Assembly: GCA_964014485.1 (NCBI GenBank)
Contig: CAXHAT010000045.1
Span: forward strand, 1-44,352
Length of the DNA stretch: 44,352 bases
Direction of reading: 5' to 3'
Source of the DNA: an uncultured Deferribacteres bacterium
GTDB taxonomy: Bacteria; Zhuqueibacterota; Zhuqueibacteria; Zhuqueibacterales; Geothermadaptataceae
Part shown: positions 10,344 to 44,352 of the stretch, piece after piece
Numbering within the stretch: the stretch's first letter is position 1
Layout: each line of letters begins with the position of its first letter
Translations under genes and position numbers: made by a program
The notes under the pieces: model-generated
Database searches by the model: none
Told to the model about the DNA's origin: nothing
What the model saw: only the letters and a program-made list of their open reading frames with translations

Positions 10344-10586
10344 TTAAACTTCACATTGATTGGCTGTATTGGCGCAGGAGAGCTCCGGCGGGGCGCCGCA
10401 ACCACAGGGTGAACCTGCAAAATCCGGCGTTTTGCTCATAGAGCCGGCGGCGAAGACGCTCAGTTTCCGCTGAACATTTTTCGCCCCGCAAAAAGTGCAA
10501 ACAACGCCTTTATCCGCCCCGCTCATTGGCCGGAGCAATTCAAAGCTCTCCCGACAGTTTTTGCAATCGTATTCGTAAATTGGCAT
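10344..10586 (-). CDS. FmdB-family zinc-ribbon protein
   Basis: MPIYEYDCKNC...CTFCG signature. Confidence 0.85.
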   Translation of the reverse strand: MPIYEYDCKNCRESFELLRPMSGADKGVVCTFCGAKNVQRKLSVFAAGSMSKTPDFAGSPCGCGAPPELSCANTANQCEV

Positions 10587-10607
10587 TTTGAAACCGTTGG
10601 ATCGCTT

Positions 10608-11135
10608 TTATTGGCCGCTTGGCGCCGCTTGTTTCGCTTCGCGTTCTTCAACAAATTTATCGTATGGTGTCGTCTTATAGTGCTCGCCGTCAATGTATTC
10701 TAACATGGGCATAAATTTTTCAGGCGGAATGTAGCCGGGCACTTTTGTGATAAAATCGCCGTTTTCGTTCAGGAAAACGGTGGCGGGAAAACCGGTTATC
10801 CCAAAGCCTTGCGTCAACTGTCGGTGAGTGTATTCTTTGCCGCGATAGGCGCCTTTTTCACTGGTTTCCGCATTGACTTTCGACATGACGACTTTTTCAG
10901 CGGCGAATTTGATGATCTCTTTATTGCCGTAGGTTTTCTCGTCCATCACCTTGCACCAGGAACACCAGTCGGTATAAAAATCGACGACGATGATTTTTTT
11001 CTCCGCCTTGCCTTTTTCCAGCGCTTCCGTGAAACCAAACCATTCGATTTTGTCGTTTTTTCCGTCCGATGAAAATGCCGTGCTAAAGATTGCTGCTACA
11101 ATCGCCATTGGGAGGAAAATCTTCCTGGTTTTCAT
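10608..11135 (-). CDS. Exported thioredoxin-fold protein (SoxW/DUF255-like)
   Basis: Signal peptide; VDFYTDWCSWCKVMD; cis-Pro loop GFPAT; PGYIPP. Confidence 0.85.
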   Translation of the reverse strand: MKTRKIFLPMAIVAAIFSTAFSSDGKNDKIEWFGFTEALEKGKAEKKIIVVDFYTDWCSWCKVMDEKTYGNKEIIKFAAEKVVMSKVNAETSEKGAYRGKEYTHRQLTQGFGITGFPATVFLNENGDFITKVPGYIPPEKFMPMLEYIDGEHYKTTPYDKFVEEREAKQAAPSGQ

Positions 11136-11258
11136 TTTTTACCTCGTTTTACATTCGACCAATACGGCAAACAGGTTTTAAAAGCCTCGTCACAAACACC
11201 AGTTGCTAACAAGAGATGCGACATATTCATTCCGTCCGTTTGTGTTCTTTGTGATGCT

Positions 11259-11471
11259 TTAAAGCGCATCGTTTTCCAGGTTTTCAGCAGCAGACGCCTC
11301 CACACGTTTTTGACGCGTGAATACTGAAAAAATACCGTAGCCAAAAACCAAAGCATAGCCCGCAATCACCTCGTAACTTGGCGTTGTTCTAAAGGCGGCT
11401 TCGTAGACGGCAAGGCTCAGGCTGACAACCATAAAAATCAAGCCCCGCAGGAGGTAACGATCAAATTTCAC
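11259..11471 (-). CDS. Small hypothetical membrane protein
   Basis: 70 aa, two hydrophobic segments, same strand as neighbours. Confidence 0.45.
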   Translation of the reverse strand: MKFDRYLLRGLIFMVVSLSLAVYEAAFRTTPSYEVIAGYALVFGYGIFSVFTRQKRVEASAAENLENDAL

Positions 11472-11501
11472 TGGAGCGATTCGCGACTATTTTGAGACTT
11501 T

Positions 11502-11584
11502 AGAGGGTATTCAAAAGCCCTTATATTTCTGCCCGCCTTAAGGTTCAGCGGGACGGCAGTTCGAGGGTTTTCAATACACGCTCT
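11502..11584. mobile_element. MITE-like element with terminal inverted repeats
   Basis: AGAGGGTATTCAAAAGCCCT ... AGGGTTTTCAATACACGCTCT; ends resemble those of 16955-17069. Confidence 0.45.
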
Positions 11585-11685
11585 TGGACAATCACCATTT
11601 TAAGTGTTTAATTTGGCTATCAATAGCCGAAATATCAACAAAAAAGATTTGATTTGTTGTAGAATGCCGAATCTGGCTCCGGCGG

Positions 11686-12066
11686 CTAGTCGATCAGGTA
11701 TGGAATCAAGAATCCCAGCCCGACCGCAATGGCCAAAGTTAAAACAATTTTATCGGTTTTGAACTGCGTGTCTTTCATGAAAAGCATTGCTGTTATAATA
11801 AAGCCGATCGAGAGCGAGAAAAGGACAAAATAGACATGATCGCGAACGACGTACCAAATCGCCGCGCCTAAAAATCCCCAAACGATGGAGCCGCTGCTGA
11901 GGATCGCCATCATCATCCAGGCTCGATTGATCCGATGGCTTTGCGCCAATGTAGCGCCGTTGGCTTCTAATTGTTTTTGAATGTAGGACAATCTCAACAA
12001 AACATATGCAACGCAGGCGACTCCGACGATAAATCCCGCGGAAAGACCGCGCAAAAAGGTTTCCAT
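11686..12066 (-). CDS. Hypothetical membrane protein (about 4 TM)
   Basis: 126-aa ORF with four hydrophobic stretches; GGAG upstream of ATG. Confidence 0.7.
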   Translation of the reverse strand: METFLRGLSAGFIVGVACVAYVLLRLSYIQKQLEANGATLAQSHRINRAWMMMAILSSGSIVWGFLGAAIWYVVRDHVYFVLFSLSIGFIITAMLFMKDTQFKTDKIVLTLAIAVGLGFLIPYLID

Positions 12067-12207
12067 GCTGTACTCCGGTGGTGCTTTCTAAATAAGGGGC
12101 AAAGGATCAAAGATACAAAGGGACAACTATGAGGAACTTTGCGTCTTTGTCCCTTCACAAACAAAAATATACCCCATTTTATTGAATTCGCGGGAGTTGC
12201 ACGGTGA

Positions 12208-13488
12208 TTATTCAGAGCGGAGGAGCTTAAAATCGTTGTTGCCCTTTTTGTCTCTAAAAATAAATCGTCTGTCCATATCGCGATAATACCACAGTTGAAT
12301 TGTTGCGGCGCCAAATTGATCGCTTTGCGTTTGCACGGAAGTCGGATCGCCGAAAATGATGTATTTCTCGCCGCGATCGGTTTCCCAACCCGCTTGCTGA
12401 ACGGCCAAAACCGAAAAGTGCTTGTTTGCAAATTCAACGCGTCGATAAAATTCGTCACGAATCGGGTTTACATCACTCTCGGGCTCGGGATTCCTAGCAT
12501 TCCAGAAATCTTTTAAAAGAGATGCACGCTCTTCCGGAGATGCGTTGACGATTTTCTGATATTCGTTTCTCTGCATGATGTATTTCAGCGCAAGATAAGT
12601 TTGGGCGTCGCTCTCGGCTTTTTCTCCATTGTTTTGAGCCACGTCATACTTGACTGAAAACTGACTGAGCGACTTCGCTTTTTGTTCGTTTAGGCTGGCA
12701 AGAATTTCAACCGTATAATTCCCGGCACTCTTGATTTTATCTGCCAAATCCTGGTCAAACTGGAGCGTTTCGTCTTCAAATACTGCGCTTTCGTCCCACA
12801 ACGCAACCACTTCTCCCGCCCAGTTTTTAAGCGTATAACTGATGCGTGTAGAATCTTCCGCCCCGCCGCCGCTGACGAAAAAACGAATAGGGACGCCTTT
12901 CGCCGCCGCCGAATAGATTTTTGGAAGATTGTATCGCATTGAATCGTTTTCAGTGGAAGGCTCCATAAACATAATGGAGCTGATTTGCAGGCTGTCTGCT
13001 TGGAAAGATTTGAGTTTTATTGGAAATTTGCGGAGCAGGCGGCGGCGCGTTTCCAAATCCGTAATTTCGAGATGAAGCTCATGGTTGCCCGGCTTCACGT
13101 CGTATTCAAATTGATCTCTGCTGTAAATATTGCGGCTGTTCGTCTCGTCGAAGGATTCCGCGAATATTTCCCTGGAATTCAGTTTTTCTCCGAGGTGCTC
13201 ATTTTCTGAATTGACGAGGTCCATTGAAATGCGAATGCCGGCGCGGTAGCGGCCGTTTTCCTGACGCACAAATTGCAGAACGTCGTTAACCAGCGCAATG
13301 TTGATTTCCAACTTTGTGTGATCCGTCTGCGCGCTTTTGAATTGATGCATACGAAACACAAAAGACGGCAAACCGAACATCTCATCGCGCCGTGCATCGT
13401 TTTCTTGAGTTGAAAAAGCAATGCTGAAAAAAGCGAAGAAAAGTATTGTGTATTTAAAACTTAAACGCATTTGAAATTCCCTGATCAA
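12208..13488 (-). CDS. GWxTD domain-containing protein (start may be ATG 13470)
   Basis: Signal peptide; FWNARNP, EFYRRVEFAN, GWETDRGEKYIIFGDP. Confidence 0.9.
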   Translation of the reverse strand: MIREFQMRLSFKYTILFFAFFSIAFSTQENDARRDEMFGLPSFVFRMHQFKSAQTDHTKLEINIALVNDVLQFVRQENGRYRAGIRISMDLVNSENEHLGEKLNSREIFAESFDETNSRNIYSRDQFEYDVKPGNHELHLEITDLETRRRLLRKFPIKLKSFQADSLQISSIMFMEPSTENDSMRYNLPKIYSAAAKGVPIRFFVSGGGAEDSTRISYTLKNWAGEVVALWDESAVFEDETLQFDQDLADKIKSAGNYTVEILASLNEQKAKSLSQFSVKYDVAQNNGEKAESDAQTYLALKYIMQRNEYQKIVNASPEERASLLKDFWNARNPEPESDVNPIRDEFYRRVEFANKHFSVLAVQQAGWETDRGEKYIIFGDPTSVQTQSDQFGAATIQLWYYRDMDRRFIFRDKKGNNDFKLLRSE

Positions 13489-23439: not shown

Positions 23440-24831
23440 GTGAAAATGATCCTTTTTGCAAACCGCCGGACGCTTTTGAACATGATCTTGATCGCGTGTG
23501 TTTTTTTTAGCCATGAAATTGTTTTCAGTCAAAGCTCCGGAATAGATGGGAGCAAGCAACGACTCGAAGAAAAAGTCGACGCCTACGTTCGTCCCTACCT
23601 GGAAACAGGAAACTTCAGCGGCTGCATTTTGATCGGAAAATCGGGGGAAGTGCTGCTCAACAAAAGCTACGGCTTTGCCGACCGTGAAAAACAAATACCC
23701 CACACGACGCAAACCAAGTTTCATCTGGCTTCCGCTTCCAAGCCTTTCACCACGGCGGCGATCATGCTATTGGAAGAACGAGGCCTTCTCGAAGTAACCG
23801 ATCCGGTCACAAAATTTGTCGCTGATTTTCGACACGGAGACAAAATCACTATCCACCACCTGATGACGCATTCCAGCGGCATTTCCAACAGCCCTGGACT
23901 CGGCCATTTTTTGGATGAACTGTTTAACCGCTCAAAAACGCCGAAGTCGCTCGTCGCCCAATTTAAGGACGATGACCTGATTTTTGAACCGGGCGAGCGC
24001 TATAGCTACAACAACGCCAACTACCAGTTGCTCGCCTACATCGTTGAACTCGCTTCCGGGCGGAAATTTGACGCCTTTCTCAAAGATAACATTTTTTCGC
24101 CGCTCGAAATGCATGACTCAGGCCACGATTCCGGCGACGGCTCACAACTGGAGCAGAGTGCAAAAGGCTACGCGCCGGTAGGATTAACCGACATAGAACC
24201 GGCGCCTTCGGTGAATTGGACGACCAAGACCGGCAGCGGCTCGCTCTATTCCACCGTGCAAGATATGTACAAATGGGATCGCGGCTTGCATGAAGGAAAG
24301 CTGCTCAAACAAAGCAGTTTGGACAAGCTGTTTAAGAATCATCTTGCCGGATCGGGCTATGGTTGGTTCACGGTTCCGCATCTCAACAGAGAGCGCGTCT
24401 ATATCAACGGCCGCAGCCCCGGCTTTTCTTCCTACCATGTGCGCTATCTGGAAGACAAATTGACGATTATCATCCTGAACAATATGTACAACTCCCTGCC
24501 CACGCCGATGGGAAAAGACATTGCCGCCATCTTCTTTGATGAACCCTACCAGGTTCCCCAATTTTCCGCCGCAAAGTCCCGCCGGGAAGTGATCAACGCC
24601 ATTGTTGGGACGTACCAATTTGGCCCGGATTTTTATCGGCCCAACGGCGCCACGAAAATCTTTGCAAAGGACGGCAACTTGTACACCTCCGAAGGCGGAC
24701 TTCTCGCTACGCCGGACGAGATGACGTTCATCTACCGCAGATACTGGTCAACCTTGACTTTTGTGCGCGGAGAAAACGGCAAAGTGACGCACGTTATTTT
24801 TGATTCCTTCAAAGGCAACAAAGAGAAATAG
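23440..24831 (+). CDS. Beta-lactamase-family (class C/PBP-like) serine hydrolase
   Basis: Signal peptide; LASASK (SxxK); HLMTHSSG; FEPGERYSYNNANY (YxN). Confidence 0.9.
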   Translation: MKMILFANRRTLLNMILIACVFFSHEIVFSQSSGIDGSKQRLEEKVDAYVRPYLETGNFSGCILIGKSGEVLLNKSYGFADREKQIPHTTQTKFHLASASKPFTTAAIMLLEERGLLEVTDPVTKFVADFRHGDKITIHHLMTHSSGISNSPGLGHFLDELFNRSKTPKSLVAQFKDDDLIFEPGERYSYNNANYQLLAYIVELASGRKFDAFLKDNIFSPLEMHDSGHDSGDGSQLEQSAKGYAPVGLTDIEPAPSVNWTTKTGSGSLYSTVQDMYKWDRGLHEGKLLKQSSLDKLFKNHLAGSGYGWFTVPHLNRERVYINGRSPGFSSYHVRYLEDKLTIIILNNMYNSLPTPMGKDIAAIFFDEPYQVPQFSAAKSRREVINAIVGTYQFGPDFYRPNGATKIFAKDGNLYTSEGGLLATPDEMTFIYRRYWSTLTFVRGENGKVTHVIFDSFKGNKEK

Positions 24832-24976
24832 ACCCTATTTTCATAACTCTACACATAGGATCACCAGGAGCCTTCTGGATACTGATGGTCCTGTATTTCT
24901 CTTTCTTCTTCTACTTTGATTTGACCATCCATTCACAATTGTGAACAGAAATTAATCACATATTCCAAATTTCCGC

Positions 24977-25005
24977 TTGATATTCCGCCGCCTTAGCAAT
25001 ACCAT
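24977..25005 (+). promoter_or_regulatory. Sigma70-like promoter upstream of the intI remnant
   Basis: TTGATA-17 bp-TACCAT; flanked by palindromes TTCACAATTGTGAA (24932-24945) and TTCAAT-TATC-ATTGAA (25005-25020). Confidence 0.5.
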
Positions 25006-25054
25006 TCAATTATCATTGAAATAAAAAATTGTGATTGACTCGCGATGGGGAGTT

Positions 25055-25276
25055 ATGTCCGCCGTCCAATCTCAAAAATCCATCCCGCCAAAGCCGAAAC
25101 TTCTCGAACAGGTGGGGTACGACCTACGTGCGAAGCACTACAGAAAGAATACGTTCGTTGTTACCGTGAAAGCGGCGGGCGGCAAATGGAATAAGAAGAA
25201 AAGGCTCTCGGAATTGCCCTACGGCGAAGCTGTTGAACTGAGACTGCAAGATGGGATCATGGAAGAAGTCAATTAA
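25055..25276 (+). pseudogene. intI: Integron integrase N-terminal remnant fused to an unrelated C-terminal fragment
   Basis: KPKLLEQVGYDLRAKHY matches the IntI N-terminal pattern PKLLDQVR..LR.KHYS; no catalytic domain; directly upstream of the attC array. Confidence 0.65.
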
Positions 25277-25366
25277 AATGTTTCCCATATAAGAAATGTT
25301 TTTGGAATTTCTGGAAATGTTTCTTGTATAAGAACTTTTTCGATAAAATTCGCATGGATATAGGCG

Positions 25367-25411
25367 GGATTATGCGGCTCGTGTCCAGCAACATAATCCT
25401 AAGTTAGCCGC
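25367..25411 (+). other. Candidate attI site
   Basis: Core GTTAGCC at 25403 starts cassette 1 with no attC upstream; preceded by inverted repeat GGATTATG (25367-25374) / CATAATCC (25392-25399). Confidence 0.55.
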
Positions 25412-25445
25412 TGATTCGCAGATTATTGATTGAAAAGAGACAAGC

Positions 25446-26480
25446 ATGCCTCGAGAATACTACATTCCGAAACTCAAGCACCAGCTTAAAAGTCTTTACT
25501 GGGTGATCTTCGCTATTGCTCTCAGCAGCATATTTGTGTTACGGAAATTAGATTCGAATCTTGTGATGATTTTCTCCGCTTTGATCTCCTGTTACGTAGC
25601 CTTCGAACTCGCACGCTTTTTTCTGCTGCGAAGTGCACCGTTCAATCTCTCTTCAGACGGGATAGTTTTTCAAAGGAAGGAACGGGTGGAAGAAAAACAC
25701 AGCTGGGCTGAATTCAACTCAATTTGGGAAGAAAAGGATTCCTGGATCTTTGTGAAGTCTTCCGGCAAGAGAATCCGTGTTCGCATGATCGGCTTTGATA
25801 TCGAAACACAGATTGAAATAGCTGAGCGTATTGGTGCGCTGAGACCATCCCCGACTTCAGAAACCAACACCGGAACTGTTCAGAGCCGAGAAATCGTATT
25901 CAAACCCGAGTACGAAAAATCGACTCTGCTTGCCTTCGCTCTCGGCATCCCAATGTTTTCTTTTTTCATAATTTTTCAGTTTGTCACAGGAGTGAGCGAT
26001 CAAGTCACATTCGCTACCATCATGCTTGTAGCGTGCGCAATTCTGGCTCTATTCAACTTCTATCGAAGGATTTCGTTCGGTGACCATATTCTAGTTGAGC
26101 GATACGTCCTAAAGCCTAAAGTCATAAACTATGGTGATATCAAAGATTACAGCATGAGCACCATCATTACAACCAAGGGAAGAATAGCCCTACACTCAAT
26201 GGTCAATAGTGAGCTCGTAATTCAGATTATTGAGCAAAAACTACAGGAAGGGAAAATCTTCGAGGAGCAACTCAGGGGTGAAGTAGCCTTTCAAGAGCTT
26301 GTCGCATGGCGCGCGTCGATGCTCAGTCTTCCAATTTCCTTAGTGATTGTCGCAGTAATGTATACTTTCGACTTATTGCCCAAACACTACAGACTCGAAC
26401 TCGTGTTCATATTAGTACTTATCGTTACATCTGGCGTTTCATACTTGATTTTAAAGTCGAGACAGGAAATGAGTAATTGA
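25446..26480 (+). CDS. Cassette 1: hypothetical multi-pass membrane protein (YcxB/bPH-like modules)
   Basis: 344 aa; TM pairs separated by beta-rich soluble segments, e.g. DGIVFQ...HSWAEFNSIWEEKDSWIFV. Confidence 0.7.
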   Translation: MPREYYIPKLKHQLKSLYWVIFAIALSSIFVLRKLDSNLVMIFSALISCYVAFELARFFLLRSAPFNLSSDGIVFQRKERVEEKHSWAEFNSIWEEKDSWIFVKSSGKRIRVRMIGFDIETQIEIAERIGALRPSPTSETNTGTVQSREIVFKPEYEKSTLLAFALGIPMFSFFIIFQFVTGVSDQVTFATIMLVACAILALFNFYRRISFGDHILVERYVLKPKVINYGDIKDYSMSTIITTKGRIALHSMVNSELVIQIIEQKLQEGKIFEEQLRGEVAFQELVAWRASMLSLPISLVIVAVMYTFDLLPKHYRLELVFILVLIVTSGVSYLILKSRQEMSN

Positions 26481-26491
26481 TCGGATGCTGC

Positions 26492-26626
26492 GGCTAACAA
26501 TCACGTCAACTGGACCCCAAAAAGCTGAGCGCGCATTTCAAATTTGTGAGCATGATGAGCCGACAGAAATAAGTCAAAGTTGAGTACTTCGAGTGTTTTG
26601 GGGCCCAGTTACGAGCACCGTTATGA
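26492..26626 (+). other. attC site 1
   Basis: R'' GGCTAAC-5-L'' CGTCAACT-GGACCCCAAAA ... TTTTGGGGCCC-L' AGTTACG-6-R' GTTATGA. Confidence 0.9.
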
Positions 26627-26667
26627 AACCAGTTATCTGTCCTTGGTAATGAAGGAGCTTAACAAAG

Positions 26668-27279
26668 ATGAATACCGTTCCCCAAATAAGCTGTCCGAGT
26701 TGTGAGCAGTTGAACCCATACACTGCGGCGAAATGTAAGAAGTGTGGTGAAAGCCTGGTTTTTAAAACAGGTCGAGAATCAAAATCTTCGACTACGGATC
26801 AAGTATTGCCCGGTCTAACTTCAACCCATCTCCATTCAAATCTTGGAGTTCAACCGAAGGGCGCGATATCTGGCCCCGGTGCCTCGGTTCAAAAACAAGC
26901 CTCCGCAGCTTGGAATGCTAGGGACTACCAAGCTGCATTGCCGTTATACTCAAAGGTCATTGAGTTGGGTTTAGATTCAGAATATGATATGTCTCTGATG
27001 CATTCTTCCCTTGGTCAAGTTCACATACAGCTTGGGAATATCAGAGATGCTGTTGATCAGTTTCATGCGTGTTTAGCCTTGGAAAATCGAGCTGCACGAG
27101 CAACTTGGCAGGCCCTAATGTATATTTCGTACATATATCAAGCAGCGAAGATGCCCAACGACGCTTCTGCTGCGCTTGAAAAGGCGAGAGAAGTTAATCT
27201 AAATCTGGCACACCGCTCAAATATTAAGTCTGAAGTACATGCGAAGGTTCAACAGTGGTACTCAAGAGGATGTCCATGA
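26668..27279 (+). CDS. Cassette 2: zinc-ribbon + TPR protein
   Basis: AAGGAG RBS; CPSC-x10-CKKC; TPR-like helices YQAALPLYSKVIEL and LGQVHIQLGNIRDAVDQFHACLAL. Confidence 0.75.
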   Translation: MNTVPQISCPSCEQLNPYTAAKCKKCGESLVFKTGRESKSSTTDQVLPGLTSTHLHSNLGVQPKGAISGPGASVQKQASAAWNARDYQAALPLYSKVIELGLDSEYDMSLMHSSLGQVHIQLGNIRDAVDQFHACLALENRAARATWQALMYISYIYQAAKMPNDASAALEKAREVNLNLAHRSNIKSEVHAKVQQWYSRGCP

Positions 27280-27363
27280 GATTTGTCTCCATTCAATGGA
27301 TAAACATGTGAATAATTGGGAACTGTTCCTGCCTTCACGTTCACAGCTCTTCGCCAGTTCGTT

Positions 27364-27495
27364 TCATAACATCTCGTTCGTTTTGACGGCGAAAAGCTGG
27401 GCGCGAATTCAGAGTTTTCGGGTCCGTGAGCGTGTCGTTTTAAAGAATGTTTCGGTGCTCGCTAGTTTCGCCGCAACACAACTTGGCCGTTATCC
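27364..27495 (+). other. attC site 2
   Basis: R'' TCATAAC-5-L'' GTTCGTTT-TGACGGCGAAA ... TTTCGCCGCA-L' ACACAAC-6-R' GTTATCC. Confidence 0.88.
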
Positions 27496-27532
27496 ATGAA
27501 TTCATGTAAGTTTAATCTGGCAGGAGGCCAGA

Positions 27533-28015
27533 ATGGAAAGTTGGATAGGAATTGTAATTGCGAAGAATGAGCTTACGCTAGTTCGTCTCGCTGTATCGGA
27601 GAAACTTGGTCGTGTGGAAGTAGTCGATGATCGAACTCTCAAACTTCAGGCTGGATCACGTGGAGTTGCGTACCGGAAAGCTCAAGAATGGGTGGTCACT
27701 TATCTTAGAGAATTGGGCCCACAAAGGGTAACGATTAAAGGATCTGCTTTACCACGGCAAGGAAGTCCGAAGCTCGGATTGCTGGAAGGGGCTGAGTTCA
27801 GAGGTGCAATAATGGCGGGCATTGTCGAATCCGGTTGCAAATTGGAAGTCTCAAAGAAGGCTAGCTTGAGTAAAAGTTTCGGTGACCGGAAAGTGGATGC
27901 CTATGTGAAAGATGATACGTTTTGGGGTCAAAACTTCACGGGGAAATTGAGAAAGGGAAGTAGAGAAGCAGCATTGATGGCTTACGCGACTGTGCAACGG
28001 CATGGCTCACTTTAG
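27533..28015 (+). CDS. Cassette 3 gene A: RuvC/DUF3010-like RNase H-fold protein, catalytic acids apparently lost
   Basis: AGGAGG RBS; IGIVI strand, PQRVTIK, EGAEFRGAIMAG helix and REAALMAY terminal helix parallel the RuvC layout (by eye). Confidence 0.55.
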   Translation: MESWIGIVIAKNELTLVRLAVSEKLGRVEVVDDRTLKLQAGSRGVAYRKAQEWVVTYLRELGPQRVTIKGSALPRQGSPKLGLLEGAEFRGAIMAGIVESGCKLEVSKKASLSKSFGDRKVDAYVKDDTFWGQNFTGKLRKGSREAALMAYATVQRHGSL

Positions 28016-29051
28016 AAGTACCAACCTAAAAGCGGTGTCTCGGCTGGGCGCAGGTCAATTTGGAACTGTGTATCTTGCCGAAGACCAGTTGCATGGGGCA
28101 GTTGCAGTCAAGTACATTGAAAAGAAGAAGACCGAGCTTGATAATCAGTGGAAGGAACGGAAAGAGAGTTTATTGTCGGAAGGAAATCGGCTCAAAGCTG
28201 CAGAACATGCCAATGTGGTTCAGATTTACGATGTAAGGCAAACCGACGATGGAAATGGAGTATTGCTTGTTATGGAGTACTGTCCAGGGGGGTCATGCGA
28301 GCAGCTTTATAAATCAGGTCCTCTCTCGATCTCTCAGGCCCAGAATATACTCTCTGATGCTGCATTGGGTCTGAAAGCTATACATGCGCGCGGAATGATT
28401 CATCGCGACTTAAAGCCGGCGAATATCCTTATTTCGGAAAATGGCCGGGCAAAGATAGGAGATTTCGGCTTAGTTACAGATGAATTGGTTTATGGCTATG
28501 CTGCCGCCGCTGGTTACTTGGATCATCTAGCGTTTGAATATCACTCGAACCACAAAACAAGTGAAAAAACCGATATCTGGGCGTTCGGGATGACAAGCTA
28601 CCGTCTTTTGCACGGCAGGGCATTTTATGAATCGCTTCCGCGCCCTATCCATCTAATCCCTCACGGAAAATTTGGTTCTTCGCTTCCATGGCTTCCTCAC
28701 ATCCCGATGCAGTGGAGGCGGTTTGTTCGCCGAATGCTCCATGATGACCCAGATGCAAGGGTCACAGATGCTGATAGTCTATTTAGTGAGATCGCAAAGC
28801 TCCCAAATACTCCAGTTTGGGAATGTGATTACTCTGAACAAAAAGTGAATTGGAGTCGAACGAAAAAGAAAAGACGAATAATTGTCACCTGGAATCGACC
28901 TTCAATCAGAAGTCAGACGTGGGAAGCATCTTCCTTCCCTAAAAATAGCGGCCGTGCCAAAAAGCTTGCCGGTTCTTCAAAGAATCTTGGAAAAAGTCAA
29001 GCCACTAAAGAACTTGAATCGTTCTTTAGAAAACACGAAAATACTGGATAA
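28002..29051 (+). CDS. Cassette 3 gene B: Hanks-type Ser/Thr protein kinase
   Basis: GAGQFGTVY, VAVK, LVMEY, HRDLKPANIL, KIGDFGL, DIWAFG; stop codon lies inside attC3 R''. Confidence 0.93.
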   Translation: MAHFRSTNLKAVSRLGAGQFGTVYLAEDQLHGAVAVKYIEKKKTELDNQWKERKESLLSEGNRLKAAEHANVVQIYDVRQTDDGNGVLLVMEYCPGGSCEQLYKSGPLSISQAQNILSDAALGLKAIHARGMIHRDLKPANILISENGRAKIGDFGLVTDELVYGYAAAAGYLDHLAFEYHSNHKTSEKTDIWAFGMTSYRLLHGRAFYESLPRPIHLIPHGKFGSSLPWLPHIPMQWRRFVRRMLHDDPDARVTDADSLFSEIAKLPNTPVWECDYSEQKVNWSRTKKKRRIIVTWNRPSIRSQTWEASSFPKNSGRAKKLAGSSKNLGKSQATKELESFFRKHENTG

Positions 29052-29159
29052 CAATTCATTCGTGGTGACAGTGAACAGTGGGTGCTTTTTGCAGAGTTTG
29101 AAGTTTATAGAGTTTTCGGAAATTTTCCTGTTCACTGCCCCACAATTCACCCGTTATGC
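29046..29159 (+). other. attC site 3
   Basis: R'' GGATAAC-5-L'' ATTCGTGG-TGACAGTGAACAG ... CTGTTCACTGCC-L' CCACAAT-6-R' GTTATGC. Confidence 0.9.
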
Positions 29160-29204
29160 TCTAAGAAAACTTGATTCTATAGTATCAAGGTAGTATTATT
29201 CCTC

Positions 29205-29399
29205 ATGCCAAGAAAAATTAGAGAACTGATTCGTGATTTGGAAAAAGCGGGTTTCGTTAATCGTGGCGGGAAAGGTGGTCATCGCAACTACATTCACGAA
29301 TCGGGCGTCGTATAAACTATTTCCGGAAAACTCGGTGATGATGCAAAACGGTATCGGGAAATATTGGTCAAACAAAAAATTGCAGAAATAAAACAGTGA
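29205..29399 (+). pseudogene. hicA: HicA-family toxin with in-frame stop
   Basis: MPRKIRELIRDLEKAGFVNRGGKGGHRNYIHESGVV*TISGKLGDDAKRYREILVKQKIAEIKQ; TAA at 29313-29315. Confidence 0.85.
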
Positions 29400-29749
29400 A
29401 AGAAAGAGACAAATATCTAAAACTAGTCGAATGGTCTGAAGAAGATCAGAGTTATGTAGGTTCTGTCCCAGGTTGGATTGGAAAATGCTGTCATGGCGAG
29501 GATGAAACAAAAGTTTATCAAGAACTTTGCCAAATTGTGGACGAGTGGATTGAGATTTACAAAAAAGATGGTCGTCCTCTCCCGTCAGAAACTGCCGGTA
29601 AAAGATATTCAGGAAAATTTGTTTTACGTACTGATCCTGACTTACATCAAACTTTAGCAAAACGCGCATTGAATGAAGGTGAAAGCCTAAATAATTTTGT
29701 AGTCAAGACCTTAAAAAGAGTCGTCGCGGCGCAGCCTAAAGTGCAATAG
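29396..29749 (+). CDS. hicB: HicB-family antitoxin
   Basis: VEWSEEDQSYVGSVP..CCHG N-domain; YSGKFVLRTDPDLH...SLNNFV RHH; GTGA overlap with hicA. Confidence 0.88.
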   Translation: MKERDKYLKLVEWSEEDQSYVGSVPGWIGKCCHGEDETKVYQELCQIVDEWIEIYKKDGRPLPSETAGKRYSGKFVLRTDPDLHQTLAKRALNEGESLNNFVVKTLKRVVAAQPKVQ

Positions 29750-30057
29750 AGTTCTTGTCACGATTTTTCAAATTTTTGTTCTCACCTGTGAATCCGTGCT
29801 TTACTTTTTGTCTCGCTGAGGCGTGAGGGACGTTGCTGTTTTTGGGATGGGTTTTGATTTCGGGCCTTCTTCTGTTGGGGAGGTTTCTGTAGCACTGTTT
29901 ACAGCGCCCCGGTTTTGTTGCCGTTCACCTCAACGTATAAAATATCGTCCAGCAAAAAGATTCGGGGGCAAATCCTTTCATAGAATGATGTCTTACGAAC
30001 TTGGTCCAGTGTGTATACTTTCTTGAAAGGATGTTTAATGTTTAGCAAGGAGCGAGT

Positions 30058-30252
30058 ATGCGAACAAATATTGATATCGACGATCAATTGATGAATACTG
30101 CGCTTGAGTTGTCTGGACTCAGAACGAAAGAAGCGGTTGTAGAAGAAGGATTGAAATTGTTGGTGCAGATGAGAAATCAGGATAAAATTCGCAGTTTGCG
30201 CGGCAAGTTGAAGTGGGAAGGAGAGCTGGAAAAATCCAGATTAGATTCATGA
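30058..30252 (+). CDS. VapB-family (DUF2191-like) antitoxin, orphan
   Basis: AAGGAG RBS; MRTNIDIDDQLM..A..LSGLRTKEAVVEEGLK...LRGKLKWEG. Confidence 0.82.
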   Translation: MRTNIDIDDQLMNTALELSGLRTKEAVVEEGLKLLVQMRNQDKIRSLRGKLKWEGELEKSRLDS

Positions 30253-30966
30253 CGCCTGCGATCGGGCGCTCAGAAAACGCATGAAGTGCGCTCGGTAAAC
30301 TCTGCCAATCGGCAGGGCTTTTTTGCCAAGCAAGACACGATTACCTTCAATCGCCGTTATTTTATCTGCGGCTACAACAAAGGATTTGTGAATGCGGATA
30401 AACGTCTCGCCCAGTAAACGTTCCAAATCCGAGATTTTTTCTGAAGTTTGTATCTGGCTGTTGGTCAGGAAAACGAGAGAGTTGTTGCCGCTTGCTTCAA
30501 CGTATAAAATGTCGTCCAGCAGGACTTGCTGGAGCTTTTTCTCGCCCTTCAGAAACAGAGCGTCAGGACTTGAGACTTCCTTCTTCGCGGGTTGCTTTTC
30601 TCGCGTCACAGCCAGCGCGTCCGAGGCTTTGTTCACCGCCTTCAAAAATCTTTCAAAGCTGAACGGCTTCAGCAAGTAGTCGCAAACGCTGAGTTCAAAC
30701 CCCTCCAGCGCGTATTCCTGATACGCGGAAGTCACGATCACCTGCGGCGGACGTTCGAGCGTCCTCAGAAAATCAAAACCCTTCAGCTCCGGCATGTTAA
30801 TGTCCAAAAACATCAAGTCGACCTGATTCTGGTTCAGGTAGTTCAACGCTTGCAGCGCGTCGTAGCAATTGGTTTTGAGCTGCAGAAAAGACAGGTCTTT
30901 GGCGTATTTTTCAATGACCCGATGCGCTATCGGCTCGTCGTCGACAATGATGTATTGAACTTTCAT
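30247..30966 (-). CDS. LytTR-family response regulator
   Basis: IVDDEP, DLMFLDINMP, DYLLKPF receiver; DILYVEA and FIRIHKSFVV LytTR. Confidence 0.93.
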   Translation of the reverse strand: MKVQYIIVDDEPIAHRVIEKYAKDLSFLQLKTNCYDALQALNYLNQNQVDLMFLDINMPELKGFDFLRTLERPPQVIVTSAYQEYALEGFELSVCDYLLKPFSFERFLKAVNKASDALAVTREKQPAKKEVSSPDALFLKGEKKLQQVLLDDILYVEASGNNSLVFLTNSQIQTSEKISDLERLLGETFIRIHKSFVVAADKITAIEGNRVLLGKKALPIGRVYRAHFMRFLSARSQAS

Positions 30967-32265: not shown

Positions 32266-32434
32266 GGTTAGGCTGTAGACTGTTAGTCTGTTAGACTATT
32301 AGGTTTAAAATGCTCCGAGTTGCGCATCACCCACCGTATAGCCTAACAGTCTAACAGTCTAACAGTCTAACAGTCTAACAGTCTAACAGTCTAACAGACT
32401 AACAGACTAACAGACTAACAGACTAAAAACCTAA
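32266..32434. repeat. 8-bp tandem repeat with inverted partner
   Basis: 6x CTAACAGT + 4x CTAACAGA (32343-32422), then CTAAAAAC CTAA; degenerate inverted copies (ACTGTTAG, TCTGTTAG, ACTATTAG) at 32266-32305. Confidence 0.95.
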
Positions 32435-34795
32435 CTACTCGTCTCTCAAAACTTCCGCCGGATTCACTTTGATCAATTTGCGCGTTTGCATGGCGAGCGA
32501 AATCGCAGCGAGCGAGAACACCAAAATGTTTGAAACCAGGAGCGGTTCAAGGCCTAACGGAATTTCGACCGGCGCGAATTGCAGAATGCCGCCCAAGCCA
32601 AAATAAAAAAGCGGCGTTGCGATGAGCGTGGCGATCCCCAGCATAACCAAGAATCCGCGATTCACCAACAGAATGACATGGAAGGCTGAAGCGCCCATAG
32701 CTTTGCGAACGCCCACTTCTTTGATGCGCTGCGCTGTTCGCTGCAAAGCGACCCCGAAAAGCCCCATGCACGAAATGAACAGCGAAAAACCGGCTACGTA
32801 GCCGATAAAAGTTCCAATGCCGCCCAGGGATTGCACATCGAAGACTTCCGTTTGCGGGAAATATTCGAAAGACCTCTCCGGGAACTCTCGCTCCCAAATC
32901 GTTTTGAGCGAGGCGACAACGTCACCCATCGCTTCATTTTGAACTTGCAAGGTGAGAAAATTATATGCGGAAACGTCTGACAGACTAAAAATAACAGACT
33001 GTTCCTTGCCCATGATCGGCTGCACAATAAAATCTTCAACAACGCCGACGATGGTGAAAGATTGATCGTTGATGCGCACTTCTTTGCCCACAGGGTCGGC
33101 CCATTGGCGATATTTTGTGAAGGTTTTGTTGACCACCATCGCGCTGGAGTTATCGGCCGAGAACCCTTTGCCAAAAGCGCGACCTGCGTCAACCCTGATT
33201 CCCATCGCATTGAGATAGGACGGTCCGATTTTAAACATCATCACCTGCCGCTCAGAGCCTTCAACGAGAATTGAGGTGCGTCTTCGCATGCGCCCGATGT
33301 GATCTTCCGTACCGGCCGCCAGCCGTACATTGTGCAGCCTTACCGCTTCATTGTACAATCTATCATACTGCTCCGGGCCCGAGACGGGGATGACGAGAAC
33401 TGTTTTTTCATCGTAGCCCCAATCGTCGCTGAGCAGCTTGTCGTCCAACGAAGTGAAGAAGATAGAAAGGCAAATCGCCAGTATGGCCAGCACGAATTGC
33501 ACGACGGTGAGGGTTTGGGTGAGTTTCTTCTTCTCCGACAATTTCAGCTTGCCGCGCAAAATGGCGATGGGTTGAAAAGACGAAATATAGAACGCAGGAT
33601 AGCTGCCGGAGACGAGACCGATAAAAACGAGCAAGCCGGTGAGAAAAATCCAAAACTCGAAATTGCCGGAAAAATCGAAGGGAATCTGCACGGTCACGAG
33701 GTCATCCAGAAAAGGAACCGTCACAGTTGAAGCGAAGGCGATTCCCCCGAGCAAGGCGGCAGTGCACAGGATGAGATTTTCGGTGAGAAATTGAACGACA
33801 AGCTGCCGTTTCTCCGCGCCCGCCGCTTTTCGCACGCCGATCTCTTTCAATCTTCGCGCGGCGGCGCCCAGCGAAATGGTGATGTAGTTGAAACAGGATA
33901 CCAAAAGCACCAAAACGCCGGTCAACGCGAACATCAGGGATTCCCACAAAAGCGGCGCTTCCATGGCGCGTTTTTCGATAGCCCAAGCCGTCAGCCAATC
34001 CGGGTTCTGAATGCTGTCCAGGAAAAAAGAGCGCACCTGCCACTCATGATTGGCGGCGTTTTGAGCAGGGATGTAGCGCTGTAATTGGTCGGCGATAAAT
34101 TCGGTGTCTTCTGCTTTTTTGAGCTGGACGAACGTCGCGTCTGTGAAGGCGCCCCAATCTTCCAGACGCTCCAGCCCTGCGGAAACCCGTTTTTCATACC
34201 CGAGGAGAAAATCAAATTTGAAACTGGCTTTCCGAGGAAAAGCTTCGGCGACGCCTTGCACGACAAACGTCTCCTGTGACCCGTTTCCGAACGTGACGGC
34301 GAGCGTTTGGCCAATCGGTTCATGGTCTCGAAAATACTTGGCGGCCATTTCCGAGCCGAGAATGACGGACGACGGATCTTCCAACGCCGCCGCGCTTCCT
34401 TTGACCAGCGGGAAGGTGAGAAGGTCGAAAAAACCGGCGTCCGCGAACGATGCGATTTCTTCAAAAGCGATTCCGGTCGATTGCACCATGACCGGATGGT
34501 TGGCGAAACGAACCGCACGCTCAATTTGCGGGAAACCGGCGTCCAGGGCTGGGCCGAGCGGGACGGGGGAGATTCCCCACCGTTGCTCTTCACCTTCACG
34601 CTCCGCCGTGTGACCGACGAGAAAGATGTTCTCGCCGTTTTCATGGAAGTCATCCATGGAATTCAGCGATTGCAGAAAGAGAAACAGCGCAATGGCACAC
34701 CCCACGGCTGCGGATAAGCCGACAATATTGATCAACGAGACGACTTTGTTTTTTCGCAGATTGCGAAAGCCGAGCAATATATAATTTTTGAACAT
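32435..34795 (-). CDS. ABC transporter permease (MacB/FtsX-like, duplicated)
   Basis: MFKNY..GFRNLRKNK..SLINIVGL; RLKEIGVRKAAGA; GSYPAF; RIKEVGVRKAMGA; NPAEVLRDE. Confidence 0.92.
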   Translation of the reverse strand: MFKNYILLGFRNLRKNKVVSLINIVGLSAAVGCAIALFLFLQSLNSMDDFHENGENIFLVGHTAEREGEEQRWGISPVPLGPALDAGFPQIERAVRFANHPVMVQSTGIAFEEIASFADAGFFDLLTFPLVKGSAAALEDPSSVILGSEMAAKYFRDHEPIGQTLAVTFGNGSQETFVVQGVAEAFPRKASFKFDFLLGYEKRVSAGLERLEDWGAFTDATFVQLKKAEDTEFIADQLQRYIPAQNAANHEWQVRSFFLDSIQNPDWLTAWAIEKRAMEAPLLWESLMFALTGVLVLLVSCFNYITISLGAAARRLKEIGVRKAAGAEKRQLVVQFLTENLILCTAALLGGIAFASTVTVPFLDDLVTVQIPFDFSGNFEFWIFLTGLLVFIGLVSGSYPAFYISSFQPIAILRGKLKLSEKKKLTQTLTVVQFVLAILAICLSIFFTSLDDKLLSDDWGYDEKTVLVIPVSGPEQYDRLYNEAVRLHNVRLAAGTEDHIGRMRRRTSILVEGSERQVMMFKIGPSYLNAMGIRVDAGRAFGKGFSADNSSAMVVNKTFTKYRQWADPVGKEVRINDQSFTIVGVVEDFIVQPIMGKEQSVIFSLSDVSAYNFLTLQVQNEAMGDVVASLKTIWEREFPERSFEYFPQTEVFDVQSLGGIGTFIGYVAGFSLFISCMGLFGVALQRTAQRIKEVGVRKAMGASAFHVILLVNRGFLVMLGIATLIATPLFYFGLGGILQFAPVEIPLGLEPLLVSNILVFSLAAISLAMQTRKLIKVNPAEVLRDE

Positions 34796-36396: not shown

Positions 36397-36409
36397 AGAA
36401 TCCTGTAGG

Positions 36410-36497
36410 CCGCCGCTCATCAGTTTTCGTTTGACTTCTCGCCCGCTATTTTTTTCTTCAACACGTGATGCACAATAATTCAACTGTCTTGAGCGTA
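36410..36497 (+). repeat. 88-bp direct repeat, copy 1
   Basis: Ungapped match to 40898-40985; first about 54 bp have a single mismatch. Confidence 0.9.
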
Positions 36498-40816: not shown

Positions 40817-40897
40817 TCGTTCTGCGCAGTTCAAGTCAACGATGATCGCCGGATTTTCCCGAACCGTCGGTATTATTCCAGCCAGCCAAACTCTTGT

Positions 40898-40985
40898 CCG
40901 CCGCTCAGCAGTTTTCGTTTGACTTCTCGCCCGCTATTTTTTTCTTCAACATGTGACGCATTTAAGCTTGGCTGTTTTGAGCGTA
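40898..40985 (+). repeat. 88-bp direct repeat, copy 2
   Basis: Ungapped match to 36410-36497 at offset 4488. Confidence 0.9.
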
Positions 40986-41101: not shown

Positions 41102-43633
41102 GTGAAATCATTGCAAAGTCATTTTATTCCACAAACCAGATTGGACAAGCATTCGATTCGGACTCAGTTCGCCAGCACAAAAATGTTGTCTGGCGTCGTT
41201 TCATTTTTGGCGATCTTCTTTGCGAGTTCGCTTTTCGCACAACCTGCAGGGCCGGTTTGGATCCACATTCATACGGCAACACATAACTCGAAACCGCAAG
41301 ATCCACAAAACCCCGGGAGCGTAACCGATACCTGGTCTTCAGCGTCAACCTGGGAGCAAAACGCCGCGCCGACTGATGAAAGCACCGTCTATATTACGGC
41401 CGGTATAACAGTGACTGGAGCCTCCGGAACGGCCGAGATGATTATCGTTGAGAGAGGCGCGACGCTGGAACTTGGCGGAGACCTCGAGGTCAACTCTTTA
41501 ATCTGGGTGCGCTCAGGCGGTACGCTAAACATTGGCGCGCATACCCTGAGCGGCGGCACGCTCCGCCTGGGCTGGACAAGCGAAAGCGCAAATTTAGTCC
41601 GCAGCACAGGCGGCAAAATTCGAACAAATACCTGGGATCACTTTCGCACTGATCAGACAATGGACATACTTGACCGTGTGGAGAATCTCTACTTGTCCAA
41701 CTTTAACGGCGCCGTAACGACGTTCACAACGACCTCGCGTTTCAATATACGCGGCTCAGTCTGGGTGGAGCGAGGCGGAACCAGAGGATCGACCACGCTT
41801 GAGCTAGGCGACGATCTTGAGCTCACCGGCAACCTCTCGATGCGTGAGGGCGTCCTCAAGGATATGGGCTACAATGTGACGGTTGGGGGCCAAATCACCA
41901 ACGGCAACAGCAGGTTATGGGGCTGGAACGGCATGACAACCGAGCGCGGCGGCGGCAATTTGATTGCGCGCAAGATGGTCTTCGGGCGCGGTGTTGGTAA
42001 CGTGAGCTTCCGCAGTTGCGACGTTATTCTGGAGCAGTTTACAACCGTAAACCGCTTTACGACCACAACCAATTTTTCAATTGACCAAGATGGGACAAAT
42101 AGTGCCCGAAGCGGTACCGGCCTGTCAATCGAAAATCCGGCGGACAATGCGTTTGTGCTCGGTCACAGAGACGGCGCAAGAGACCGAACTGTAATGACTT
42201 TAAACTGGAACAACACCGTTTCACCTGGATTCGATTGGATACTTCGCTGGAAGGGAAACCATCTAGATCAACTCAAACAGTACATTCGGGACGGAAAGCT
42301 TGTGGCCGGGACCTTGCCTGGCGGCGTGAGTTTTACAGCTGACGATAATGTATTTCATGACACGATGGGATTGATTGCGGAGGAGGAGTATACCTACATT
42401 GGCATACCTGGGGCTACTGATCCAGCAGCTCTTGACGCGGTCCCGGAGCTAAACGTAGGCCCAAGCTACGTCAATTTGACTGAAGGACCAACCGGTGATC
42501 AATACGTGGAGACAGAAGGCGCTGTTAATGCAGTCATGGTATTTGTGGATTTCGAGGGCGCGCGAGCCGGTGATCTTATTACGGAGACTGTCGGTAATGA
42601 CAAGCTGGGGAACGGTGCAGCACAGATGCTTTTTGAGAGACAATCTTACGGCAAGATGAAACTCAACGTCACTCGCATTGACGGGTGGAGAAGCTTGTCC
42701 AACACGGCGAGTCATTATACGGACACGCCTGATGATGGGAATCCGGCCACGCCTGAGGATGATGCAACCCACTTCGATACTTATGCTGAACACCTAACTT
42801 ATATTCAGGATGTGACGGCACTCTTTACTGATGTGACTTTTTCCAACTACGATATCGTGCTTATTGTCGCTTCACCAACGCCCGATATCAGGTTATCTCC
42901 TGCTGTCACTGTAGGGGCTGGAGACATAAGCACCTTGAATGGCGTACGAGCGGCCGTTACGTTTGGAAATGACAGCTATACAAACCGCTGGACGAACTTG
43001 GTGCATGAAATGGGACACCTGTTTGGCCTTCCGGATCTGTACCCATTTGCGCCTCTAAAAAAGAAAGACAGCGTTGTGGGGCCATGGGATTTGATGGACG
43101 ATATTTTTTCAGGGAATGTTTTTCTCGGCTGGCATCGGCACAAAATGGGCTGGCTGGATGGAAGCCGCATGAGATATCTCCAACGCACGACAACGACTTT
43201 CGAGCGGACCTACGAGCTGACGCGCGTGTCCTCCTGCTGCGGTCCATCGATGGTGGTTATTTCGGCGGGCACTGAGACCAATCCATCAAAGGTGTTTGTG
43301 GTTGAACTCACCGAGCCCGTCCTGACGTCAGATTGGCGAGCGAAGCAAATGTCTAGTAGTGATGGCGTGCTGATCTACAGCGTTGACGCCACTCTTGCAA
43401 GCGGTAGTTTCCCAATCAATGTCTACTCACGAACACCAAGGCCGGCGACGCCTGCAAGTGATTCGGATTATGAATTTTTATGGCAAGCGCCTTGGGAAGT
43501 TGATGATACCTTTAATGATACAGATTCTCCAGTTGACGGCGTCCCAATGAAAGTGGAAGTTCTCAGCAAAACAGGCACAGGATCCAATTCCACCTACGAG
43601 GTCAAAATTACTGTAAACAGCAGTAACCAGTAA
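41102..43633 (+). CDS. Secreted M6-family (immune inhibitor A-like) metalloprotease with G8/beta-helix-like N-terminal region
   Basis: GGAGGA RBS; signal ending SSLFA; WSSASTW...P...VYI; VMVFVDF, QSYGK, HEMGHLFGLPDLY, GPWDLM, KMGWL. Confidence 0.82.
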   Translation: MKSLQSHFIPQTRLDKHSIRTQFASTKMLSGVVSFLAIFFASSLFAQPAGPVWIHIHTATHNSKPQDPQNPGSVTDTWSSASTWEQNAAPTDESTVYITAGITVTGASGTAEMIIVERGATLELGGDLEVNSLIWVRSGGTLNIGAHTLSGGTLRLGWTSESANLVRSTGGKIRTNTWDHFRTDQTMDILDRVENLYLSNFNGAVTTFTTTSRFNIRGSVWVERGGTRGSTTLELGDDLELTGNLSMREGVLKDMGYNVTVGGQITNGNSRLWGWNGMTTERGGGNLIARKMVFGRGVGNVSFRSCDVILEQFTTVNRFTTTTNFSIDQDGTNSARSGTGLSIENPADNAFVLGHRDGARDRTVMTLNWNNTVSPGFDWILRWKGNHLDQLKQYIRDGKLVAGTLPGGVSFTADDNVFHDTMGLIAEEEYTYIGIPGATDPAALDAVPELNVGPSYVNLTEGPTGDQYVETEGAVNAVMVFVDFEGARAGDLITETVGNDKLGNGAAQMLFERQSYGKMKLNVTRIDGWRSLSNTASHYTDTPDDGNPATPEDDATHFDTYAEHLTYIQDVTALFTDVTFSNYDIVLIVASPTPDIRLSPAVTVGAGDISTLNGVRAAVTFGNDSYTNRWTNLVHEMGHLFGLPDLYPFAPLKKKDSVVGPWDLMDDIFSGNVFLGWHRHKMGWLDGSRMRYLQRTTTTFERTYELTRVSSCCGPSMVVISAGTETNPSKVFVVELTEPVLTSDWRAKQMSSSDGVLIYSVDATLASGSFPINVYSRTPRPATPASDSDYEFLWQAPWEVDDTFNDTDSPVDGVPMKVEVLSKTGTGSNSTYEVKITVNSSNQ

Positions 43634-44297: not shown

Positions 44298-44352
44298 GAC
44301 AGAAGGCGCTGTTAATGCAGTCATGGTATTTGTGGATTTCGAGGGCGCGCGA
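44298..44352 (+). repeat. Exact 55-bp copy of 42511-42565 at the window end
   Basis: GACAGAAGGCGCTGTTAATGCAGTCATGGTATTTGTGGATTTCGAGGGCGCGCGA at both places. Confidence 0.95.

Follow-up and report, generated by a model that had tools for sequence, protein, structure and literature searches.

To our knowledge, the kinase-based phage defences, namely Stk of prophage 933W, Stk2 and PD-T4-6, are listed as single genes, and the way in which they sense infection is mostly unknown. One of them, the Ser/Thr kinase Stk2, mediates abortive infection. Stk of prophage 933W is reported to be activated by HK97 infection, to be involved in exclusion and to show little or no activity as long as cells are uninfected (PMC3681748). 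The Pf prophages carry a kinase-kinase-phosphatase module (KKP) whose kinases are described as toxins restrained by their partner and control Pf production through the phosphorylation of MvaU (PMC11341870). Additionally, many sedentary chromosomal integron cassettes are described as encoding defence systems (10.1101/2024.07.02.601686). The locus described here lies in contig CAXHAT010000045.1 of an uncultured Deferribacteres bacterium (assembly GCA_964014485.1), which was analysed as a whole (C45, 44,352 bases; hereafter, the window) and belongs to a genome of 8.4 Mb in 465 contigs. The locus consists of two overlapping genes, A and B, coding for a RuvC-fold protein and a Hanks-type Ser/Thr kinase. 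On balance, we lean towards the view that the two genes together make up a complete module, spread by horizontal transfer, that most likely acts against phages by abortive infection or exclusion. The pair is probably a variant of Stk-type kinase defence, with a pseudo-nuclease partner that has so far gone unstudied. The features that make up the pair are the following:

27533–28015, plus strand: gene A, 160 amino acids (aa); RuvC fold, with the catalytic Asp and Glu replaced (V8 and K69).
28002–29051, plus strand: gene B, a 349-aa soluble Hanks-type Ser/Thr kinase with all catalytic motifs intact.
28785–29048, plus strand: conserved C-terminal basic domain of the kinase; five strands and one helix in a model of the domain alone, with a predicted local distance difference test score (pLDDT) of 88.4.

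The sequence AGGAGG stands 8 nucleotides (nt) 5′ of the ATG of gene A, and the two open reading frames (ORFs) overlap by 14 nt (28002–28015). A layout of this kind is already annotated in the Stx phage Min27 (NC_010237.1), where cI is followed by a DUF3024 gene, then by a 153-aa ORF named “RuvC-like Holliday junction resolvase” and by stk, the last two overlapping by 7 nt. In that locus (L093, 2574–4651), the DUF3024 gene thus separates cI from the RuvC-like ORF, and a 54-aa ORF lies behind stk.

The pairing of A with the kinase recurs well away from the window. When loci were collected through A, the kinase overlapped it by 4 or 8 nt in all five (P. putida, Anaeromyxobacter oryzisoli and three metagenome contigs). 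When they were collected through the kinase, close relatives (43–47% identity) were found in 6 of 22 viral contigs, and A lay directly upstream in the five of these that include upstream DNA, the sixth starting inside the kinase gene. In the S. meliloti plasmid pHRB800, the kinase is intact, but an insertion of the IS5 family separates it from a truncated A, which matches positions 5–95 of the family profile (E 1.1e-23) and is detected only with that profile; a tblastn search with A against the plasmid and GenBank phage collections gave no match. A is directly upstream of the same type of kinase at every locus that could be judged, as the gene-neighbourhood check suggested in a preliminary description of this DNA was meant to establish, and the pair is a conserved overlapping operon across distant bacteria and temperate-phage contigs.

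The surroundings of the pair are also informative. In three viral contigs (L027, L028 and L029), a CI-like repressor (phrog_4) immediately precedes it on the same strand, and in three others (L026, L030 and L031) the pair is surrounded by tail, lysis or head genes. Elsewhere, it is found near a DpnII-like restriction enzyme and a D12 methylase (L013), beside ShosA/ShosT on pHRB800 and, in the window, beside vapB and the hicAB genes, of which hicA contains an in-frame stop. In P. putida (L009), the neighbours are HetE-N with PIN-TPR-GreABC and HATPase_c_3 with Metallophos. With restriction–modification (R-M), ShosTA and toxin–antitoxin (TA) genes and a CI-like repressor nearby, these surroundings are typical of defence genes. 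As for the P. putida flanks themselves (1424–5250 and 8446–12212), which include a PIN-TPR-GreABC protein of 1134 aa, their three large proteins had no PADLOC match except two weak ones (E about 2e-4), and these genes are possibly further uncatalogued conflict systems.

The protein encoded by gene A has no Pfam, NCBIfam or PADLOC match. In an exhaustive search, its family comprised 141 representatives after clustering at 50%; for 94 of these, the E-value was 1e-10 or better, and almost all have a length of 150–165 aa. The spread of the family is patchy: among 167 genomes of the phylum to which the window belongs, the window's own is the only one with A, and among 400 genomes scored in the class that includes the P. 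putida genome, A was found once, in the P. putida genome already known. From an alignment of 82 full-length members, fragments and longer forms being excluded, AlphaFold2 produced a model of high confidence (pLDDT 96.1, predicted template-modelling (TM) score 0.90) with the order strand-strand-strand-helix-strand-helix-strand-helix. The top 12 rows of a Foldseek search of the PDB with this model are all RuvC, with query-normalised TM scores of 0.68–0.76 and E-values down to 4e-10 (0.72–0.76 for the RuvC structures 7xhj, 4ld0 and 6lw3), and the matches in the viral structure library BFVD are phage RuvC-like resolvases. At the level of profiles, DUF3010 (PF11215) is touched weakly by 27 of the 82 relatives (E up to 1, best 3.3e-4) and RuvC (PF02075) by two (E 0.011 or weaker), while the window protein matches neither. 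In the ESM Atlas, A falls in unnamed clusters, one of which carries DUF3010 on 11% of its members. Judged by these comparisons, the A family is related to DUF3010 and is not a member of it; DUF3010 itself was placed in an RNase H-like resolvase clade by Majorek et al. and is described as having conserved active-site residues (PMC3985635).

The catalytic site is where A departs from RuvC, whose model in Pfam leaves the window protein unmatched even though A retains the RNase H-like fold and the RuvC Arg-Gly motif. Canonical RuvC has a catalytic acidic tetrad formed by an Asp in strand 1, a Glu in strand 4 and two acids in the last helix. Position 8 of A, in strand 1 at the place of the first Asp, has Val (29), Thr (16), Ile (10) and Ser (7) as its four commonest residues in the 82 members, none of them an acid, the equivalence being taken from the strand register in the model and not from an alignment. 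Position 69 is Lys in 67 of 82, and an hhalign comparison with a RuvC profile built from 15 genomes of the phylum (probability 49%, E 1.7e-4) places K69 on the invariant catalytic Glu and R90-G91 on the invariant Arg-Gly of helix 2. The strongest conservation in A lies at E88 (81 of 82), R90 (82), G91 (81), D127 (79), W131 (76), R144 (80) and E145 (63), of which only E145 may, by eye, match one of the last two acids of RuvC. The strand-1 Asp and the strand-4 Glu are missing across the whole family, which has the RuvC fold without the first two metal-binding acids of RuvC. The preliminary description had called A RuvC/DUF3010-like by eye, with V and K in place of the first two catalytic acids: the substitutions hold, and they extend to the family, and the RuvC fold stands by model and Foldseek. 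A is basic (isoelectric point (pI) 9.9), as are many of its relatives (51 of 82 above 8), and the genome carries a separate, normal ruvC on another contig (C67).

The kinase is far easier to place, with 153.7 bits against Pfam Pkinase (PF00069; cut-off, 31.7). Its translation contains the GAGQFG, VAVK, HRDLKPAN, DFG and AFE motifs, the catalytic residues are invariant in the six kinases aligned, and B, judged by its residues, holds everything required of an active Hanks kinase. The motifs, the solubility and the basic C-terminal extension that had been read from the letters are in this way borne out. Of 8000 candidates scored with a profile of six sequences, at least 760 reach E 1e-40 or better; the best 120 matches have 334–346 aa, cover 88–99% of the query, tail included, and carry names that include Burkholderia, Bordetella, Aeromonas, Xanthomonas and Mesorhizobium. 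The kinase also matches phrog_2361. The tail, i.e., the last ~88 residues, has a pI of 10.3, and the pI is 8.9 or more in 11 of 12 sequences, in all of which W12, W23, R30, W46, A48 and G56 of the tail are invariant. The fold search proposed for both proteins, which gave RuvC for A, found no confident fold for this tail: Foldseek returned nothing from the PDB at E 0.001 or better, with weak rows for p32/C1QBP, Whirly and Pur-alpha, Pfam had no match for any of the 12 tails, the ESM Atlas had no usable match, and a protein search with the tail only returned the window's own protein alone. VIA-align gave the TriTu immunity protein (Z 8.1) and WGR domains (Z 5.2–5.8), a range common for unmatched models, and no fold was assigned on this basis.

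How, then, does the pair relate to the systems already described? The Min27 locus is the closest in design: in both cases, a RuvC-fold ORF of ~150–160 aa overlaps the start of a Hanks kinase of ~345 aa, behind cI on the same strand as in L027–L029, and the kinase domain of Stk is homologous to that of the window kinase (27% identity; kinase profile E 2.2e-36). By contrast, the N-terminus of the Min27 RuvC-like protein matches a RuvC profile (E 1e-5), whereas A has no match to Pfam RuvC. We consider that the window pair is a separate large branch, with a Stk-like design but a partner family and a tail domain that are distinct. With respect to PD-T4-6, the kinase domain (residues 13–271) matches many PADLOC models (PDLC04039–04064; best E 8.5e-42, these being E-values and not PADLOC thresholds), and annotation pipelines would probably give the window kinase that name. 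PD-T4-6, however, is catalogued as a single gene, whereas here there is an upstream partner that has no PADLOC model, and the tail of the window kinase lies outside the part matched by the profile. The best PADLOC match of the kinase domain is in fact mad6 of the MADS system (1.2e-59, profile positions 50–312 of 659), but the window protein has half the length and reaches 111.8 bits against a cut-off of 460 with NCBIfam MAD6 (NF047741); when the two ORFs upstream in the window were scanned, no PADLOC match was found, mad models included.

More distant likenesses are to KKP and to the integron defence cassettes. KKP is likewise a kinase module carried by prophages and is reported to serve in regulation as well as in defence, its kinase toxicity being released by a phage protein (PMC11341870), but control there is exerted by a phosphatase, which the window pair lacks, its partner being a RuvC-fold protein. 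The integron cassettes resemble the window in that a compact system occupies one attC-bounded cassette beside TA genes, and differ from it in that the window array holds only a remnant of an integrase; the terms “kinase”, “RuvC” and “PD-T4-6” are absent from the main text of the corresponding preprint (10.1101/2024.07.02.601686). We found no description of a pair formed by a RuvC-fold protein and a kinase in the literature, where a mention in the original Stk or PD-T4-6 papers or in preprint supplements is possible. The initial impression that the pair corresponds to no named system thus has to be divided: PADLOC has neither a model for A nor a paired system of this kind, but the same layout had been annotated in Min27.

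By analogy with Stk of 933W and Stk2, the kinase would be the effector that, once switched on, phosphorylates host or phage proteins and stops phage growth. A would act as a non-catalytic regulatory subunit of the kinase, kept at a fixed ratio through translational coupling, and the basic C-terminal domain of the kinase may help to hold nucleic acid or A. In the version that we prefer, A would recognise branched or junction DNA or, alternatively, a phage recombination protein, and would report phage replication or recombination to the kinase. This role as a reader is suggested because the RuvC scaffold and the Arg-Gly helix are kept while catalysis is lost, and because both A and the tail are basic; it is favoured here and is, at the same time, the weakest step of the mechanism. 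In its most specific form, where the dead RuvC-fold protein is a structure-specific sensor of Holliday junctions or branched phage intermediates that switches on a Hanks kinase, the proposal is tentative, and we would not expect it to hold in that exact form.

Several observations weigh against the defence reading or, at least, against parts of it. The A family is not a sequence relative of the RuvC-like protein of Min27 (E 0.048 in a search with three sequences) and the tail of the window kinase is not common to Stk (tail profile E 0.25), so that the link to the proven Stk system is one of design and kinase domain only. Any binding of DNA by A or by the tail is predicted from fold and charge only. 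The count of A-like genes in viral contigs covers the six close loci of the 22, the other 16 being distant (30% identity or less), and the neighbours at one further locus (L011; BNR and GNAT) do not suggest defence. Finally, the kinase ORF of pHRB800 is intact beside a broken A, which agrees poorly with a strict requirement of the kinase for A, except if this plasmid copy is silent. A prediction of the complex from the kinase and A alignments gave a score of 0.00 and is uninformative in either direction.

The main rival to a defence function is an addiction (TA) module, in which the kinase would be constitutively toxic and A its co-translated inhibitor, so that the pair would stabilise the array, prophage or plasmid carrying it, and defence would be at most a by-product. 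Such modules would explain why a small upstream gene overlaps a larger enzyme gene and why the pair is found on prophages and a plasmid and, in the window, among the TA genes hicAB and vapB; TA genes are, moreover, known content of chromosomal cassette arrays. The KKP kinases, described as toxins checked by a partner (PMC11341870), offer a parallel. However, A has no known antitoxin fold or motif, and neither a helix-turn-helix nor a ribbon-helix-helix DNA-binding domain was found in it with Pfam and Foldseek. The little or no activity reported for 933W Stk in uninfected cells (PMC3681748) is at odds with constitutive toxicity, and the pHRB800 locus is mildly so, as a lethal toxin, if expressed, would not tolerate a truncated A beside an intact kinase. 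We therefore regard an addiction module as unlikely, while it is the alternative that deserves most attention.

Two other readings depend on which observations are given most weight. The location directly behind a CI-like repressor in three viral contigs, together with the control of Pf production by the KKP kinases through MvaU (PMC11341870), could point to a regulatory module of mobile elements, in which the kinase would phosphorylate host nucleoid proteins or phage regulators, tuning lysogeny and induction, and A would tie this activity to the state of the element's DNA. Nevertheless, the pair also occurs in settings that offer no lysogeny to be regulated, namely in an attC cassette, near R-M genes and on a plasmid, and the position behind cI is also the classical place of exclusion genes; this reading seems to us improbable. 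The conservation of acids in A (E88 in 81, D127 in 79 and E145 in 63 of 82) and the conserved active-site residues described for the nearest Pfam family, DUF3010 (PMC3985635), would allow A to be still a nuclease or DNA-processing enzyme acting via these three residues, and the pair to be a phosphorylation-regulated unit of DNA repair or recombination. That two RuvC metal-ligand positions are V/T/I/S and Lys throughout the family, and that a mobile, patchy distribution is ill-suited to a role in repair, makes this the least credible of the explanations, to which we give very little weight. We thus return to the defence reading, with A as a regulatory partner of the kinase, as the one that we prefer.

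In the window, the pair stands in a cassette array, whose parts are:

25446–26480, plus strand: ORF of cassette 1, a 344-aa predicted membrane protein with no family match.
26489–26629, plus strand: attC-like site a, from nhmmer and covariance-model matches and the repeat alignment.
26668–27279, plus strand: ORF of cassette 2, a zinc-ribbon and TPR protein (Pfam TPR_2, 2.1e-8; DZR, 0.0032).
27361–27498, plus strand: attC-like site b, whose R′ box GTTATCC (27489–27495) is the start of the A-kinase cassette.
29043–29162, plus strand: attC-like site c, the A-kinase cassette's own, with R″ GGATAAC (29046–29052) and R′ GTTATGC (29153–29159).

One cassette (about 27490–29153) of a three-site attC array without a working integrase contains A and B and nothing else, and the R″ box of site c overlaps the stop codon of the kinase. 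That two ORFs overlapping by 14 nt fill a single cassette had been proposed beforehand, and the ORF coordinates and sites b and c agree with it. The boundary motifs that accompanied that proposal, GTTATCCA (27489) and TGGATAAC (29045), are both present; they are parts of two separate copies of a repeat and not the ends of one inverted repeat. Starting from three intergenic stretches of similar appearance, a profile of this repeat converged at 12 copies genome-wide, three of them in the window, all on the plus strand and each immediately 3′ of a gene or operon, and nine on other contigs, where all nine adjoin the end of a co-oriented ORF (ORF list, by reading). The copies have 120–140 nt and ends of the form TAAC...GTTA (family consensus, xxxTAAC...GTTAxxx). 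Their consensus hairpin has 20 conserved pairs, 13 of which show compensatory changes; 90.8% of the cells are paired, in comparison with 26–41% when the partners are slid by 1–3 columns, and none of 500 shuffles attained the observed values. The order within the hairpin is paired ends, an unpaired spacer of 4/5 nt, a stem of 16 pairs and a variable middle, and the 5′ arm contains a conserved unpaired C (column 20) and AC (columns 27–28).

The core sites of attC are R″ RYYYAAC and R′ GTTRRRY, and site c agrees with this consensus at 5 of 7 (GGATAAC) and 6 of 7 (GTTATGC) positions. The anatomy of attC, i.e., an imperfect hairpin with a spacer, unpaired bases and a variable middle, is found in the repeat family. 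Because of the strong covariation and its position 3′ of an intact intI in three of four relatives (see below), the repeat behaves as the attC site of this lineage. Folds of the single sites were no better than those of shuffles (z −0.1 to −1.6). An attC finder based on core-site pairs and a minimum free energy hairpin gave many matches within genes and was too unspecific to be used. A different cassette of this genome (577 nt, a 103-aa ORF and an attC-like site) is present on contigs C312 and C355, 94.6% identical and in differing surroundings, with borders at TTAGRT and at the GT of the R′ box (CCGT). No further copy of the A-kinase cassette with attC borders was found, and the attC model detected no site in 12 other loci that carry the pair.

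Upstream of the array, the window contains what is left of an integron platform:

24966–25141, plus strand: 5′ remnant of an integron integrase, with the promoter region and about 30 initial codons; 71% identity with C46:7382–7205 across 178 nt.
25148–25410, plus strand: platform segment with an attI-like junction (GTTAGCC, 25404–25410), 80% identical to C46:42894–43152 and also present on C323.

The stretch C46:7382–7205 is the start of the IntI-like gene of the genome, which is itself split by a stop or frameshift; at the peptide level, the window remnant matches it at 55% over 38 aa. In the platform copies on C45, C46 and C323, similarity ends directly after AAG|TTA, as expected for an attI junction. 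A small ORF (25031–25276) begins like an integron integrase and continues with a conserved KAAGGxWNKKKRLxELPY stretch; it has no Pfam or NCBIfam match, copies or remnants of it are found in the same genome (C46:42583–43152, C44:3979–4225 and C323:795–1039), and on C45, C46 and C323 it directly precedes the attI-like junction.

Integron integrases are frequent in the relatives of this bacterium, IntI being above the NCBIfam cut-off in 53 of 121 genomes of the class, a tally that takes in one unpublished genome (G158). The repeat covariance model was run on the DNA around intI, with four relatives having at least 1 kb 3′ of the gene (in two others, G146 and G154, the contig ends at or within ~800 nt past intI). 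Co-oriented matches lie 3′ of intI in three of the four, namely three in G141, one in G140 and one weak match in G090 (E 1.3e-3), and the fourth, G104, had no repeat match 3′ of intI. In the usual integron, intI is divergent from the array. The attC-like sites of these three relatives (G141:C56, G140:C16 and G090:C3) stand 3′ of intI on the same strand, which is the “inverted integrase” arrangement.

Downstream of the A-kinase cassette, the array is followed by a further unit:

29205–29749, plus strand: hicA and hicB; hicA has an in-frame TAA at 29313–29315, after which a HicA-like frame resumes, and hicB is intact.

The hicA toxin gene looks inactivated, with the hicB antitoxin kept, and the attC covariance model detected no site behind the two genes. 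Farther on, vapB (30058–30252) has no vapC partner in the window, and a fragment of a LytTR domain (29899–30087, minus strand) includes an 88% repeat of 30482–30521, within the neighbouring response-regulator gene; the lone vapB and this fragment (29899–30252) indicate that the island has been rearranged at its right edge. Other repeats of the window are an 8-nt unit, AGTCTAAC, with ~12 tandem copies at 32324–32443 and inverted copies at 32276–32303, which lies between a histidine-kinase gene and a MacB-like transporter gene and could be slippage-prone or regulatory; a 70-nt direct repeat (91%; 36403–36472 and 40891–40960) behind two ORFs 4.5 kb apart; and an exact 55-nt repeat (42511–42565 and 44298–44352), the second copy of which reaches the end of the contig. 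In a scan for promoters and terminators, the counts were no different from those of shuffles, and the sole Rfam match in 24500–30500 was a sub-threshold glutamine riboswitch. The stretch is present in three sequencing runs, all of marine-metagenome DNA and from one study; no RNA run is among those listed as holding it, and no contig of the three DNA runs joins across the A-kinase cassette.

In any case, the pair provides a concrete candidate for the sensing or regulating subunit of kinase defences. It is small enough for a single integron cassette, or else the immunity region of a prophage, to carry it, and it adds a two-gene system to the defence cargo of integron cassettes. If A were indeed a sensor of junctions or branched intermediates, the pair would represent a bacterial immune pathway that reads the shape of DNA, and not a sequence or a protein, and whose output is protein phosphorylation. 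Taken with the RuvC-like and Stk pairs of Stx phages, this would also mean that, as a rule, a pseudo-nuclease subunit has been overlooked in the kinase defences that are catalogued as single genes.

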